The notes under the pieces are model-generated. The model searched no databases, was not told the DNA's origin, and saw only the letters and a list, made by a program, of their open reading frames with translations. Of a stretch of DNA of 64,000 nucleotides, positions 2,246 through 57,700 are shown one piece after another. Location of the stretch: assembly GCA_951406725.2 (NCBI GenBank), contig OX597818.1, forward strand, positions 104,160,001 through 104,224,000, written 5' to 3'. This DNA is from Octopus vulgaris (taxonomy: Eukaryota). Numbering within the stretch: the first letter of the stretch is position 1; each line of letters begins with the position of its first letter. A program made the position numbers and the translations under genes.

Positions 2246-2956
2246 ATATATATATATATGTTTGTGTGTGTGTGTGTGTGTTTGAGTGTTTGTGTGTGTG
2301 TGTGTGTGTGTGTGTGTGTGTGTGTGTGTGTGTGTGTGCGTGCGTATAATATCTAAACATATTTTCTCAATCCGTTTTCTCCCTTTTTTTCCCCTTAATC
2401 CTTTCTGTCGAAGACCATGGGCTCAAGATGTCAAAAGGCTTTTACATTCTTGCCGAACGTTAATCTAATACACCTGCGGTTGTTCAGAAAAGAGCGACAC
2501 CATCATAAGTACCAGGCTTATGACTTAAATAATACTCGGATCGATTCATACGACTAAAATTCTCCAAGTCGATAACCCAGTATGCCTGCAGTCAAATAAC
2601 TGAAACAATTAAAAATATAAAAGGCATCACCCAATGTATCTTACAATATTTTAGACTGAACAATGTAAAATCTAGGAACATTTGGTTGCTATTTCCAGGG
2701 TAGCGACTCAACACGTGCAGGCTTCTTTGTTGGCTTGTGAAATGTTAATATTAAAGACGTTATGGTAGATTGGGTTTGGGAGGCGGTTATTCGGTAGTGA
2801 GTGAAGTAGATGACTTGTAATCACTCTAACGAACCATATAACCATATTCATTATTACCTTGGCAACGCGTTAACAACCGGAATTTTATTATGTCACCTGA
2901 CTCCTTTTAAATTTGAATAATGAAAGCCTGTCAGAAAAGATGGTTTACGCTGTCGT

Positions 2957-4700
2957 TTGATAGCTGTGATAGTGATAATGATGGTGATGATGATGGTGGT
3001 GGTGGTGGTGGTGGTGGTGGTGGTGGTGGTGTTGCTGTTGTCGTTGTTGATGTTGTTGTTGGTGGTGGTGATAGTGGTGAGTGAGTGGTGGGTAATGGTA
3101 GTAGGTAGTGGTGGTGGTAGTGGTGTGATGAAGAGGCTGCTGCTGCTACTGCTGCTGCTGATGACGATGACGTTGATAATGGTGACCAAGACGTTTATCA
3201 TGATCATGATGATGGTTGTCGTGGTGGTGATGGTGGGACGGCGGCTACGGTGGTGGTGGTAGTGGTGGTGGTGGTGGTGGTGGTGGTTGTGGTAGTGGTG
3301 GTGATGGTAGTAGGTGGTGCTGCTGTCACTGCTACCGCTAGTGCTGCAACTGATGACGATGACGTTGATGATGATGATGATGATGATGATGATGATATTT
3401 ATGACGATATTTGCTGAAGTCGATGGTGATTGTGATGATAACAATTTTGATGAAAATAAAATGGCTGATGTTCCTGCTAATGAGAATGCGAATGAGGAGG
3501 ACTGCTCTGATGATGGTGATTGTAATTATGACAATGCGGTTTCGTGTGCTGGTTGGCCGCGACTGCCTGCTCTTCATCATTATCATGATGATGATGATGC
3601 TGCAAACGATCATACTGATCATCATCATCATCATCATCATGATGAAGACGATTATGATAATGCTATATTTCGTGACAAGAGTGCTAAGCATGAATGTTGA
3701 TAATGATGTTGTTGATGGTGATACTGATGATGATATTTCAAGGGGATAATGACAATGAGGGCGAGTGAGATATTGATGATGATGATGATGAGGAGGAGGA
3801 GGAGGAGGAGGAAGCGGATCGCTCTGATAATGATGATGATGCTGGTGGTGGTGGTAGCGGTGATTGTTGATGATGGTGATGATGGTGGTGATATTGAGGA
3901 TGATGATGGTGGTCATGTTGATGATGATGATGATAATGCTGATAATTACGATGATGATGATGATGACAATGATGAGGTTGAGTATTATTATTATTATTAT
4001 TATTATTATTATTTTTATTATGATTATGATTATTATTATTATTATTATTATTATTATTATTATTATTATTATTATTATTATCATGGCCGTTTTGGAATAG
4101 GTGATATAGTTGGGAGAATTGATAGCAGAGACGGAAGAGATTGCGGTTGAGGTAGTCGTGGTGGTGGTGTTGGTGGCAATCGTGGTGGTCATCGTCGTCG
4201 TCGTCGTCGTGATGAAATCGGTTATGATGGTGGAGATGATGACGATGGGGTGGGGTGAGGTGGGGGGTAAAGGTGTCGTTGATGTTTAAAAACGATGATG
4301 GTGTCTGCGATGGAAGAGGCTGGATGATGGGTTAGCGATACAGTTGCGATTATCAGGCAAGATGACGATAACGACAATCATGACAATGCCGATAAGGACG
4401 ATGGCGAATACGACGACAACGATGACGACGATGAAGATGCGGCGTGGGGGGGAGGGGAGGTTGATGATGATAGAAGTGATAAATATGAAGATCTTCCATG
4501 AGATTATAGCGGTAACATCGAGCGAGGTGATGACAATGACGATGGTGATCACTGTCAAGTTGATCTTGATTATAACAATCATCATCATCATCATCATCAT
4601 CTTCGTCATCAATATCATCATCAGCAACAGCAGCAGTATCGTTGTCGTCATTATCGTCATCATAACAATCATGATAGTGATAATTGTAATAGAAATCATG
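2957..4700. repeat. Mosaic trinucleotide low-complexity region (GGT/GAT/TAT/CAT/GAC)
   Basis: Direct inspection; the source of many spurious poly-amino-acid ORFs. Confidence 0.95.
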
Positions 4701-54890: not shown

Positions 54891-55469
54891 ATATAAATAT
54901 ACATATATAAACATGCATATATATATATATATATATATATATATATATACATGCTTAAATACATATACAGACTTACATACACACATACATATATACATAC
55001 ACACACACACACACACACGCATATATATTGCTGCTATGGTGACATCGTATTTCATTATGGAATCCTTATAAACTATCAAGTATATTTTCAAGGGTTTATT
55101 CAATAGCGTATCCTACTATGTGTTAGTGGAGCGTTGTTTTCATTTCTAAGTGTATCTCAACGAGTCTTCGTATACGAAAGGTCATTCTATTCAATGCTGG
55201 CGTTAAAGTCTATAGAAAATTTGTAGAGGCACACTAACACTTCGACACCTGTACAGACAACATCAATTTGATGGAGAGAATGGGCTAATGAGTGACACGA
55301 ACATTTGATCACTAATAGGTCGTCTTTGAAGAGACTGACAAACGCATATGTACGTGTGTGTGTGTGTGTGTGTGTGTGTGGCTGTCTGCGTTTGTGCGTG
55401 TGTATATATATATATATATATATATATATATATGTATGCGTGCATGTATATATATATATATATATATAT

Positions 55470-57700
55470 AAAATATTATTAGAGACAAAACCACTATTTT
55501 GCAAAACAAACAAGGAAAGACTTAATCAATACATAAAATTTTAATAAATAGTCAAAAAAACCGCCACTACAATTGTTTCTTGTCTTGATCGACAATCTTC
55601 AGGTGGACTTCCAATCTAAAATATCAATATTTTAAAATATAAAATAATAATTTTAAAATAATTAAAGTATGAATGAAAAAATATAAATATATAATCCATA
55701 TATAACCTATATATAATCCATATATAATCAATATATAAACAATATATAAACTAAAATAAACCTATCAACAATTAAATATAAAATATAAAATATAAAATAT
55801 AAAATATAAAACAAAACAAAAAAATAATAATAATATAATAATAAACTATATATACACCCATACACATATACCTAATTATATATAACCATATCTAACTACA
55901 TACACTAAATCACACACCTATAAATATATCCCTATACATACACATAAAAACGTCTAGGCAACTATAAATAAATAAAATAGCTAAATACTTCAACACAATA
56001 CTAATTCATACTCCCACACACACACACACATACAACCCACATTCACGCTCTAGAAAACGGACATTACTTAAAATTATGAACGGAGAAATGGAATAAATGG
56101 AATTAAAAATTATATTCACTTGGTAAAACGAACACTACTTAAAAATTATGAATGAAACAATGCAATAAAACAACAGACATCGCAAATAGACACAAATTAC
56201 TACGAATTCCTCAACAAACCTACCATGATAAACCAAAACTCATAAAAACATATAATGATAAAATCTCCCTTTACTAAACTCTATAACATACCTATATAGC
56301 AATCCCCCTAACCTAAACATTCACACACAAATACACACACATAAACCACACACCCACGACATATACAAATACCCACACCACTTACACATACCTATACATA
56401 CATATAAACCTCAACATATACTCCAAAAACCCACTCAACCCCACACAGACAAATAAACACAAAAATTATGAATGGATTCTTTTATAAAACTACCATGATA
56501 AGCTAAAACTCACAAAACATAAATGATAAAACCTCCCTTTACAAAACACTATAACATACTTATATAGCAATCCCTTTAACCTATACATTCACACACAAAT
56601 ACACACACGTAAACCACACACCCATAACAAATACAAACACCCACCCCACTCACACGCACCCACAAGTACATATAAGCCTCAACATATACACCAAACAAAA
56701 TTACTTTACCAAGGAACTTAACATATGTATAAAAAATATATAACCGCTCTGGAAACGAACATCTTTAAAATAATGAATGGAGAAATGGAATAAATGGAAT
56801 TAAAAATAATATTCACGTGGCAAAACGAACACCACTCAAAAATTATGAATGAAACAATGTTATAAAACAACCAACATCGAAAATAGACAAATTACCACGA
56901 ATTCCCTAAAAAAACCATGATAAACCAAAACTCTTAAAAACATATAACGATAAAATCTCCCTTTGCTAAACTCTATAACAAACCTATATAGCAATTCCCC
57001 TAACCTAAACATTCACACACAAAAAAAACACACACGTAAACCACAGACCCACAACTTATACACATACCTATACTAACTTATAAACCTCAATATACACCAA
57101 AAACCCACTCCCTCCCCACACAGACAAATTAACACATACATCCCAAAACCTAAATAACAAACCCATATACACATTCACACACAAACACACACACACGCAA
57201 AACACACACACACAACAGATACATATACTCCCTCAATATACGCATATACATACTCACTAAACTCGATATATACAACAATATTTACACACCCACACTCATA
57301 CAGATAAATAAATTATACAACTAAAAAGTCACACACAATCTCATATACATAAACACTCCAATAAAAAACAACATTAAATACATCGTAATTAACCAGAATA
57401 TCAAAAATAACAATATGACATAAGGAGAAATAAAATACATACTTACATATCAGTTTCAAATTATGAAGTGAAATTAAATTCTTAGCCGTTAATAAAATCA
57501 AACCAAAATTACGTTACCATAGAAATATAACTTATGTAAAAAAAGAATACGCGCCATGGAAAGTAAACGTCATTTAAAATTATGAATGGAGAAATAGAAT
57601 AAATGGAACTAAAAACTATATCCACGTGGCAAACCATCACTACTAAAAAAAATTTATTATGAATGGATTCTTTAATAAAACTACCATAATAAATTATTAT
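55470..57700 (-). mobile_element. ~2.2-kb non-coding, strand-biased element with nested tandem repeats, ending in the intact hammerhead
   Basis: A/C-rich plus strand. Motif ttaaaattatgaa.ggagaaat.gaataaatggaa occurs at ~56068, ~56765 and ~57573; motif ccatgataa.c.aaaactc...ctccctt occurs at ~56220, ~56490 and ~56915. The left end abuts (TA)n. The right boundary is uncertain. Confidence 0.55.
55564..55606 (-). ncRNA. Minimal type-I hammerhead ribozyme, intact core
   Basis: Minus strand reads CCAC CUGAAGA UUGUC-GAUCAA-GACAA GAAA CAAUUG UA GUGG: 4-bp stem I, complete core, 5-bp stem II, palindromic stem III (ACAAUUGU), GUA cleavage triplet. Confidence 0.85.

Follow-up and report, generated by a model that had tools for sequence, protein, structure and literature searches.

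Hammerhead-Like Motifs in the Window

The stretch of Octopus vulgaris DNA analyzed here (64,000 nt, hereafter the window) raises the question of what about a dozen hammerhead-like motifs, mostly set among microsatellites, actually are and how they came to lie so close together. A check of the window found all 12 strings at the positions and on the strands given in the earlier note. A strict type I descriptor picked out one of the 12 sites (55564; mean of 0.05 in 20 shuffles) and a relaxed one two (55564 and 12794; mean of 0.2 in 30 shuffles); most of the 12 sites lack significance when taken singly. Folding of single motifs was no better than that of shuffles (z from -0.08 to -1.23), and the repeat search was dominated by microsatellites, with the exception of a 450-nt inverted repeat. 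Moreover, the best 150 of 417 Rfam rows listed for the window were microsatellite-driven miRNA matches and held no hammerhead, and nine loci with intact copies gave none at the gathering score. Over the genome, RF00163 (Hammerhead_1) gave six matches from 73 candidates scored, all at places other than the window sites. Standard descriptors and Rfam thus miss most of these motifs.

We then turned to homology, with intact natural copies from loci outside the window as seeds. This search recovered 11 of the 12 sites, together with two inverted partial copies and one weak extra site at 36275 (Table 1), and the same search on a shuffled 1 Mb returned none. Each of these 11 sites is a member of a repeated family, and the intact copies of these families have the architecture of a minimal type I hammerhead: stems I and II close the core, and stem III is palindromic or short. 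The twelfth, 40622, is without a family. Its DNA search matched only itself, its pattern search gave two matches in 2.8 Gb, and a 7-mer close by forms the inverted counterpart of its box; it is probably a chance look-alike. The window holds 14 hammerhead loci against 6.3 expected (bootstrap P 0.01), making it approximately 2.2 times richer than average, a figure obtained with seeds biased toward the window's own families.

Comparison with the families changes the reading of several sites. Measured against their own families, seven of the 11 copies in the window are damaged, but the label "decayed" does not suit 12794, 45241 and 55564, which are identical to many other copies, and several odd forms are simply the family form; the earlier reading overlooked that several odd cores are family-fixed variants. 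Site 41361, described as a 5' half only, proved to be complete, spanning 41296-41383 and having a long stem II. Nor are the sites mostly unrelated, as had been thought: approximately 10 families fall into fewer lineages; 2403, 45639 and 7312 form one superfamily, and the 12794 and 45241 families are 72% identical in protein. The canonical core (C3-U-G-A-N-G8-A9, G12-A-A-A15.1, U16.1-H17) is present in intact copies of the 55564, 42126, 46771, 40995, 41361 and 7312 families. The expectation that intact family copies would restore the core was borne out where cores are canonical or compensated at positions 3-8, and fails at the strict core for the U6 family and family A. The extra A after the box and the palindromic stem III are features already published (PMC4209133).

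Table 1. Features of the window, with strand and the basis on which each was assigned.
Positions	Strand	Feature	Basis
2403..2436	+	Decayed hammerhead, U6 family, box CUGUNGA plus extra A	Family homology; weak on its own, without downstream (TA)n
7213..7443	+	TA-bounded stub, decayed hammerhead 7312-7346, A6 sister subfamily (box CYGANGA, extra A)	Family homology
11750..12746	-	3' stub of young Hydra-type Penelope-like element	GIY-YIG end plus 3' repeat with hammerhead
12747..12886	+	Terminal-repeat stub, Neptune-type family B, intact U3-A8 hammerhead 12794-12831	Many identical copies
36245..36277	+	Weak decayed hammerhead homologue, absent from the earlier list	47 bits against one intact copy in locus L228
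40622..40645	-	Probable orphan look-alike between two other repeats	DNA and pattern searches
40937..41113	+ and -	TA-bounded head-to-head stub pair, Hydra-type	Homology to intact copies
41296..41383	-	Complete hammerhead with long stem II; window copy has GACA in place of GAAA	Family homology
41945..42432	-	Retrozyme-like tandem repeat (353-nt unit, about 1.4 units present) with canonical core at 42112-42168	Repeat copies
42541..45392	+	5'-truncated young Neptune-type element, family A	Repeats, RT + GIY-YIG frame, hammerhead
45590..45765	+	Stub with decayed U6-family hammerhead 45639-45673	Family homology
46540..47077	+	Fold-back insertion of 546-nt tandem retrozyme-like repeat	Repeat copies
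55471..55690	-	Terminal-repeat stub, young Hydra-type element, perfect type I hammerhead 55564-55606	Strict descriptor

Elements Carrying the Motifs

The most complete element in the window is that of family A, which is composed of an inverted repeat (42541-43096), an RT and GIY-YIG frame (43109-44523) and a 3' repeat (44521-45392), and is 99.8% alike to a full-length copy; in Pfam, translated 43075-44520 scored below the cut-off for RVT_1 and above it for GIY-YIG. Its hammerhead (45236-45278, +) combines U3-A8 with A13C, and its stem I has only 2 bp plus a bulged extension. The family B stub is fused head to head with the Hydra-type stub 11750..12746, at a junction unique to the window among 40 scored. 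Full-length two-frame elements of families A and B have the hammerhead in both repeats, and complete element frames were found in loci L223, L227 and L363. An RT followed by a C-terminal GIY-YIG endonuclease is the order of endonuclease-bearing Penelope-like elements, and pseudo-LTRs (direct or inverted) with the hammerhead inside, together with tail-type 3' ends, are likewise found as in such elements. The proteins of both families have DKG and a Cx4CxxC linker; they are called Neptune-type after these motifs (DKG, Cx2-5CxxC), which Neptune shares with Nematis.

In the 11750..12746 stub, 12043-12746 encodes a GIY-YIG endonuclease end with a CxCx5C linker (GIY-YIG E 0.013, below cut-off), whose protein matches at 99-100% in the 150 candidates scored; the hammerhead (11787-11847, -) has U4C and a bulge before GAAA. 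Behind a 55564-type repeat in L363 lies an 841-aa frame with DKT and CxCx5C, and the same linker occurs in L396 and in the window's 12043 frame. DKT, CxCx5C, a single frame and a (TA)n target are the traits of the Hydra clade, to which these elements were assigned by motif. In addition, the 40937..41113 pair joins a damaged hammerhead (40990-41036, +) to an inverted partial copy near 40952 (-). In the 40995 family, stem III is looped and stem II has U.U at its base; the link to a frame consists of inverted geometry in two loci and, in a third locus, of a degenerate frame lying 2 kb upstream.

Concerning the U6 superfamily, a U6 hammerhead was found in nine of nine stretches behind endonuclease hits of the L252 type, whose protein linker is degenerate. 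Site 7312, altered at G8 and U16.1 in the window copy, is tied to a reading frame only through its sister subfamily.

The remaining families are tandem or without a frame. The 353-nt unit, non-coding and with one hammerhead per unit as in retrozymes, occurs in up to six adjacent copies and has two fixed 3' ends approximately 40 nt apart (23 and 12 of 40 ends), resembling the Penelope "tails" described in PMC8557442 and PMC11167929. Only the 41945..42432 copy carries 14 inserted nucleotides immediately 3' of the cleavage site, and no RNA run was listed among the sequencing runs containing the unit. The 546-nt unit exceeds the published retrozyme range of 150-450 bp, and its window hammerhead (46743-46812) is cut off at position 3 by an inversion junction. 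No 5' end fell on the cleavage site in these two families (0/36 and 0/23); therefore, cutting has left no genomic footprint there. In L397, a frame of Hydra type close to 546-nt units was rejected as a link, as what lies beside it is another family's inverted repeat. Overall, the proposed linking of stubs to elements holds for seven sites, tied to RT/GIY-YIG frames of Neptune or Hydra type, and not for the 41361, 353-nt and 546-nt families; for these, as for the large G3-C8 families, 20-50 loci each yielded no frame.

Variants of the Catalytic Core

Genome-wide exact pattern matches with reversed-pattern controls indicate that families are fixed for non-canonical cores, and that all four Watson-Crick pairs occur at positions 3-8. 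U3-A8 with an ACCGGU stem III gave 8,892 matches (control 37), A3-U8 856 (control 0), and G3-C8 7,363 (control 1) and 109 (control 0). In the first 100 rows listed, counted by eye, 84 of 85 U3 rows had A8 and 13 of 15 A3 rows had U8. In the A3-U8 family, three of five stem I pairs change on both sides, with a covariation score reached in 0 of 500 shuffles (15 distinct related rows). For a pattern with C or G at position 3 (control 372 of 1,720), most of the first 100 rows were coincidental matches; C8 accompanied G3 in only 6 of 15 of these rows and A8 in 7 of 15, the latter probably decayed U3-A8 copies or background. One copy read of a C3-U8 "family" turned out to be the antisense of a LINE-like frame, and this candidate was discarded.

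The U6 family gave 19,264 exact matches and the A6 subfamily of 7312 gave 14,630 intact ones, both with a control of 0. In the U6 family, position 7 takes all four bases while every other core base and both stems are kept; A6U is fixed across its subfamilies, which places it outside the strict core. The young A13C family gave 1,842 matches, with C13 in 98 of the first 100 listed and A13 in none. G3-C8, A3-U8, A6U and A13C were not found as natural forms in the passages of literature searched; Lunse et al. 2017, a study that reportedly holds about 150,000 Penelope-associated variants, may include some of the four.

Genome-Wide Density and Association with (TA)n

To place the window in its genome, 1 Mb evenly spaced over the genome was sampled. 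The descriptor found 47 motifs against 3-8 in five shuffles, an eight-fold excess over the shuffled control. By homology, 98 loci per Mb were counted (95% bootstrap 76-121; 0 in shuffled 1 Mb) after dropping two of 114 seeds of low complexity, which had inflated the count to 333; seeds from the sample itself gave 101. Extrapolated from the sample, this corresponds to approximately 270,000 homologous loci and 115,000 descriptor-intact hammerheads genome-wide, and the very high density foreseen from the window is thereby supported.

The predicted enrichment beside (TA)n was also found, as hammerheads sit just upstream of it: (TA)6+ lies within 200 nt downstream in 48 of 85 homologous loci against 9% of control positions. 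It does so at nine of the 12 window sites, the exceptions being 2403, 40622 and 46771. The notion that many apparently unique islands are ribozyme stubs was right in that the motifs are 3' ends of a Penelope-like/retrozyme radiation, but a hammerhead homologue is present in only 23 of the sample's 133 TA-bounded complex islands of 100-500 bp and in 2 of the window's 14, both fractions being lower bounds.

Origin of the Motifs

Altogether, we consider it highly probable that 11 of the 12 sites represent segments of hammerhead shape, carried either by terminal repeats of Penelope-like retroelements or by short tandem repeats, and that they remain in (TA)n runs as stubs lacking their 5' part, frequently arranged head to head. 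The observations are that the sites belong to families, that seven of them lie downstream of RT/GIY-YIG frames, that 3' ends are fixed and 5' ends scattered, and that TA is enriched. The short tandem repeats are likely non-coding passengers of the elements. The element endonuclease would nick (TA)n, and reverse transcription would begin approximately 40-290 nt beyond the 3' side of the hammerhead and in most cases end early, so that nearly every insertion would keep a hammerhead. Two hammerheads may pair via their palindromic stem III and cut as a dimer, and the active fold may have been under selection in source elements, because positions 3 and 8 have changed together to every Watson-Crick pair. 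Most genomic copies are likely single decaying stubs, inert. Penelope-like hammerheads have low in vitro activity.

A6U and A13C alter conserved core bases, an observation that counts against this explanation; if they are tolerated, cutting is likely to be slow or protein-assisted. It could instead be, though we regard it as rather unlikely, that the sites are indeed Penelope-like ends whose ribozyme no longer cuts in some successful families (A6U, A13C), persisting as a relaxed relic or as a protein-binding or folding signal, with mobility independent of cleavage. A13C is fixed in a family with 99.8%-alike copies and open frames, U6 is fixed across subfamilies, and the cut site lacks 5' ends in the tandem families. 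Furthermore, A6C lowers activity (PMC3088659), in vitro insertion was not impaired when a Penelope-like hammerhead carried catalytic mutations (PMC11167929), and Naiad elements thrive without canonical hammerheads (PMC8557442). Against this stands the conservation of the U6 family around its free position 7; compensated changes at 3-8, seen in several lineages, also point to the active fold being selected. Loss of cutting can hold for some families and not for others.

Chance resemblance in AT-rich repeat sequence would fit the poor showing of descriptors and Rfam, and is apparently true of 40622; for the other 11 sites it is refuted by the family copies, and as a general account it retains almost no probability, given that motifs outnumber those in shuffles, that exact intact copies run to thousands against zero controls, and given the fixed place in terminal repeats and stem covariation. 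Co-option by the host, for processing its own transcripts, appears very improbable: only the sheer number of motifs speaks for it, against the damage in the window copies and the fact that most copies, being single stubs, would have no partner with which to form a dimer.

Returning to the Penelope-like origin, a bolder version may be put forward tentatively, with more doubt than confidence: independent families would form a natural mutagenesis series, self-cleaving with all four 3-8 pairs and with A6U or A13C; G3-C8 and A3-U8 would be natural forms not previously reported, the hammerhead load among the densest known, and in each genome tens of thousands of functional ribozymes would escape current descriptors. 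Young multi-copy families differing at core bases could separate selection on catalysis from dispensability.

Comparison with Known Systems

Among natural core variants, U3-A8 covariation, a change at position 6 (A6C) and U4C are shared with those in the part covered of Perreault et al. 2011 (PMC3088659), where no G3-C8, A3-U8, A6U or A13C was found. With animal non-LTR retrozymes (Cervera and de la Pena 2020, PMC7229834; Li et al. 2026, 10.64898/2026.07.22.740005), our tandem families share non-coding units with one type I hammerhead each, and U.U at the base of stem II is also reported in axolotl (PMC7229834/10.64898/2026.07.22.740005); in contrast, the arrays described here from DNA sequence are short, lie embedded in TA runs, are frequently inverted and show the double 3' ends of the Penelope type.

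The C-terminal GIY-YIG is common to the Hydra and Neptune/Nematis clades of Craig et al. 2021 (PMC8557442), where DKT, CxCx5C and (TA)n insertion match the 11787, 40995 and 55564 elements, and DKG with Cx4CxxC matches families A and B. Hydra elements have canonical hammerheads in a small number of families there, whereas here, in a comparison by motif, they are young and multi-copy.

Hammerheads in Penelope-like elements have already been published, and our main reading is this known arrangement. The minimal hammerheads of metazoan Penelope-like terminal repeats (Cervera and de la Pena 2014, PMC4209133) have in common with ours the type I topology, a palindromic or absent stem III, an additional base following A9 and the U3-A8 variant, as well as the presence of many families in one genome, copies that are for the most part single and truncated, and pairs on opposite strands; in the part of its supplement covered (file 2, part 2 of 3), the alignment held no G3-C8, A3-U8 or U6 box, and no cephalopod passage was found. 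The two differ in scale: that work reports approximately 2,000-9,000 per genome, compared with the roughly 115,000 descriptor-intact and 270,000 homologous loci extrapolated here with a different descriptor.

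Hammerhead density and (TA)n surroundings

The strings of all 12 hammerhead-like motifs reported in an earlier note were found in the window, and the very high genome-wide density that it predicted was borne out, with homologues at 98 loci per Mb (bootstrap 76-121) against 0 in shuffled sequence. From the assembly (2.8 Gb, 227 contigs), 1 Mb was sampled as 100 stretches of 10 kb at even spacing, 20 of them on C1. Intact natural copies situated outside both sample and window served as homology seeds; 112 were used after removal of 2 of low complexity from 114. Moreover, a type I hammerhead descriptor was compared with dinucleotide shuffles in 500-nt tiles. 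In its strict form, it gave 1 match in the window (site 55564; shuffle mean 0.05) and 13 in the sample (0, 1 and 0 in shuffles). When relaxed to accept also U4C, A6U, U3-A8, A13C (numbers denote core positions), a long stem II and basal mismatch, it gave 2 in the window (0.2 in shuffles) and 47 in the sample (8, 3, 5, 6 and 6), an excess over shuffled sequence in line with the earlier note. Extrapolated to the genome, descriptor-intact motifs would number ~115,000, and loci with homology at least ~270,000. The 14 window homologues (11 of the 12 reported sites, two inverted partial copies and one at 36275) represent ~2.2 times the mean density (P 0.01), an excess that derives partly from seeds favouring window families. 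Another abundant family, with a 6-bp stem II and 13 loci per Mb (L084, L085, L088 and other loci), is absent from the window.

The assembly is very rich in (TA)n runs, which number 14 per 10 kb in the window and 9 in the 1 Mb sample. The suspected enrichment beside them was confirmed, as (TA)6 or longer lies within 200 nt downstream in 48/85 loci vs 9% of 5,000 control positions; upstream, the figures are 27/86 and 10%. The proposal that islands between such runs are stubs holds for a minority only: among 133 complex islands that are 100-500 bp long and bounded by TA, 23 contain a homologue.

Families represented in the window

Sites 45241 and 12794 belong to two Penelope-like families of putative Neptune type, A and B, and are identical to 41 and 40 scored copies, respectively. 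Full-length elements of both measure 4.4-4.5 kb and contain two frames that overlap, the DKG motif and a Cx4CxxC linker, with a hammerhead motif in each of the two repeats; their proteins are 72% identical, and the two sites have the U3-A8 core in common. The frame overlap suggests frameshifting. Site 45241 carries A13C as well; 1,842 exact matches were found, and of the 100 listed first, 98 have A13C and none has A.

Site 55564 is a perfect motif (scored copies ~100% alike, 40/40), and its repeat precedes an 841-aa RT/GIY-YIG frame in comparison locus L363 with DKT and CxCx5C, marks of the Hydra clade according to excerpts of PMC8557442. Site 11787 follows, at a distance of 200 nt, a GIY-YIG frame that carries CxCx5C within the window, and its U4C and bulge before GAAA recur in 2 other copies. 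Site 40995 is a damaged copy; its family has 33 intact matches across 30 loci and adjoins Hydra-type frames in 3 loci. The fusion at 12740-12750, found once only among 40 scored matches, may have arisen when reverse transcription switched templates between RNAs from two different families, or by nested insertion.

Sites 2403 and 45639 are decayed and come from a family in which position 6 is U (box CUGUNGA) and whose motif has 19,264 exact matches vs 0 in the control, with all four bases at position 7; U6 is present in 28/29 motif reads. In locus L252, a U6 hammerhead is preceded by an endonuclease frame at a distance of 800 nt, and the motif occurs in 9/9 stretches behind related endonuclease matches, taken among the 150 matches listed. 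Site 7312 is a decayed member of the A6 sister family (CYGANGA; 14,630 exact matches, many U4C). Site 41361, previously read as a 5' half only, is actually a whole motif with a long stem II, intact in relatives. For 40622, no family was found.

Features with coordinates, in the window and in comparison loci
Feature	Location	Observation
Head-to-head fusion	window 12740-12750	Hydra-type stub and Neptune-type repeat, (TA)n absent between
Two abundant short interspersed repeats	window 40250-40600, 40650-40870	border 40622; hundreds of matches among comparison loci
Private 14-nt insertion	window 42115-42128 (-)	exactly 3' of the 42126 cleavage site; missing from the other 57 motif reads
Overlapping frames, families A and B	L223 (G000:C8:86304500-86310500), L224 (C1:173006000-173012000)	coiled-coil-like first frame of ~430 aa overlaps RT-endonuclease frame
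Helicase frame, presumably Helitron-like from its motifs	L342:1-738	next to a 55564-family stub
G3-C8 arrays	L313, L316, L364 (G000:C27, C24, C26)	~165-nt units spaced by (TA)n

Tandem units and proposed mechanism

Sites 42126 and 46771 represent tandem retrozyme-like repeats whose units measure 353 and 546 nt, respectively, and have canonical cores; an inversion truncates the 46771 hammerhead at position 3. In both families, the 3' ends fall at two fixed points and the 5' ends are scattered, none of them at the cleavage site. The 353-nt unit was also seen, nearly unchanged, in sequencing runs coded as seven different organisms.

These ends fit target-primed reverse transcription with two internal start sites 3' of the hammerhead, as in excerpts of PMC11167929; priming would occur at AT-rich nicks, and copying would stop early. 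This would explain why every short insertion retains a hammerhead with (TA)n behind it. A palindromic stem III would be compatible with cleavage as a dimer (excerpts of PMC4209133).

Core variants outside the window

An A3-U8 family, reached through an endonuclease match (L229) situated 5 kb to the right of the window, has 856 exact matches (control 0) and lies downstream of Neptune-type endonuclease frames in 7/20 loci; its stem I shows two-sided changes in 3/5 pairs, in related rows, so that this is not a probability. A large G3-C8 family, built of TA-bounded units of ~165 nt, is represented by 7,363 exact matches (control 1), and no reading frame tied to it was found in the loci examined. 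Most units in its arrays begin at one base ~15 nt before stem I; the arrays may reflect either a retrozyme-like unit of very small size or insertions made repeatedly into their own TA flank. A second G3-C8 family, with 109 exact matches (control 0), shares its stem III with the U3-A8 and A3-U8 families.

When stem III was kept constant and any base was allowed at position 8, 14,368 matches resulted (control 1,168); among the first 100, tallied by eye, A8 was present in 84/85 U3 rows and U8 in 13/15 A3 rows. The corresponding search for C3 or G3 yielded mostly noise (18 C3-G8 rows; C8 in 6/15 G3 rows), and its main matches were rejected as coincidental LINE-like sequence on the basis of one copy. 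Because the active fold has a pair between positions 3 and 8 (excerpts of PMC3088659 and PMC11167929), the paired changes point to selection on that fold, while A6U and A13C would point in the opposite direction, or to tolerance.

Comparison with known hammerheads

No natural G3-C8, A3-U8, A6U or A13C was found in the mostly open-access literature searched, nor was a cephalopod hammerhead survey; Lunse et al. 2017 would be the likeliest place for these variants. They are absent from the excerpts consulted of PMC6765202, PMC3884650, PMC5680766 and preprint 10.64898/2026.07.22.740005. Natural U3-A8, A6C and U4C are listed in excerpts of PMC3088659, and those of PMC8557442 define the Hydra clade and its (TA)n bias. 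Excerpts of PMC4209133 describe minimal hammerheads in Penelope-like repeats, in many families and 2,000-9,000 copies per genome, as well as U3-A8 and an extra base after A9, and excerpts of PMC7229834 give hammerhead counts of ~5,000 for mussel and 126,247 for axolotl. Altogether, the window motifs are real, largely as the earlier note had inferred, but belong to a known kind of element. The axolotl genome is ~10 times larger, and it is the high density in octopus, together with cores fixed by family, that forms the new part and offers a clear test.
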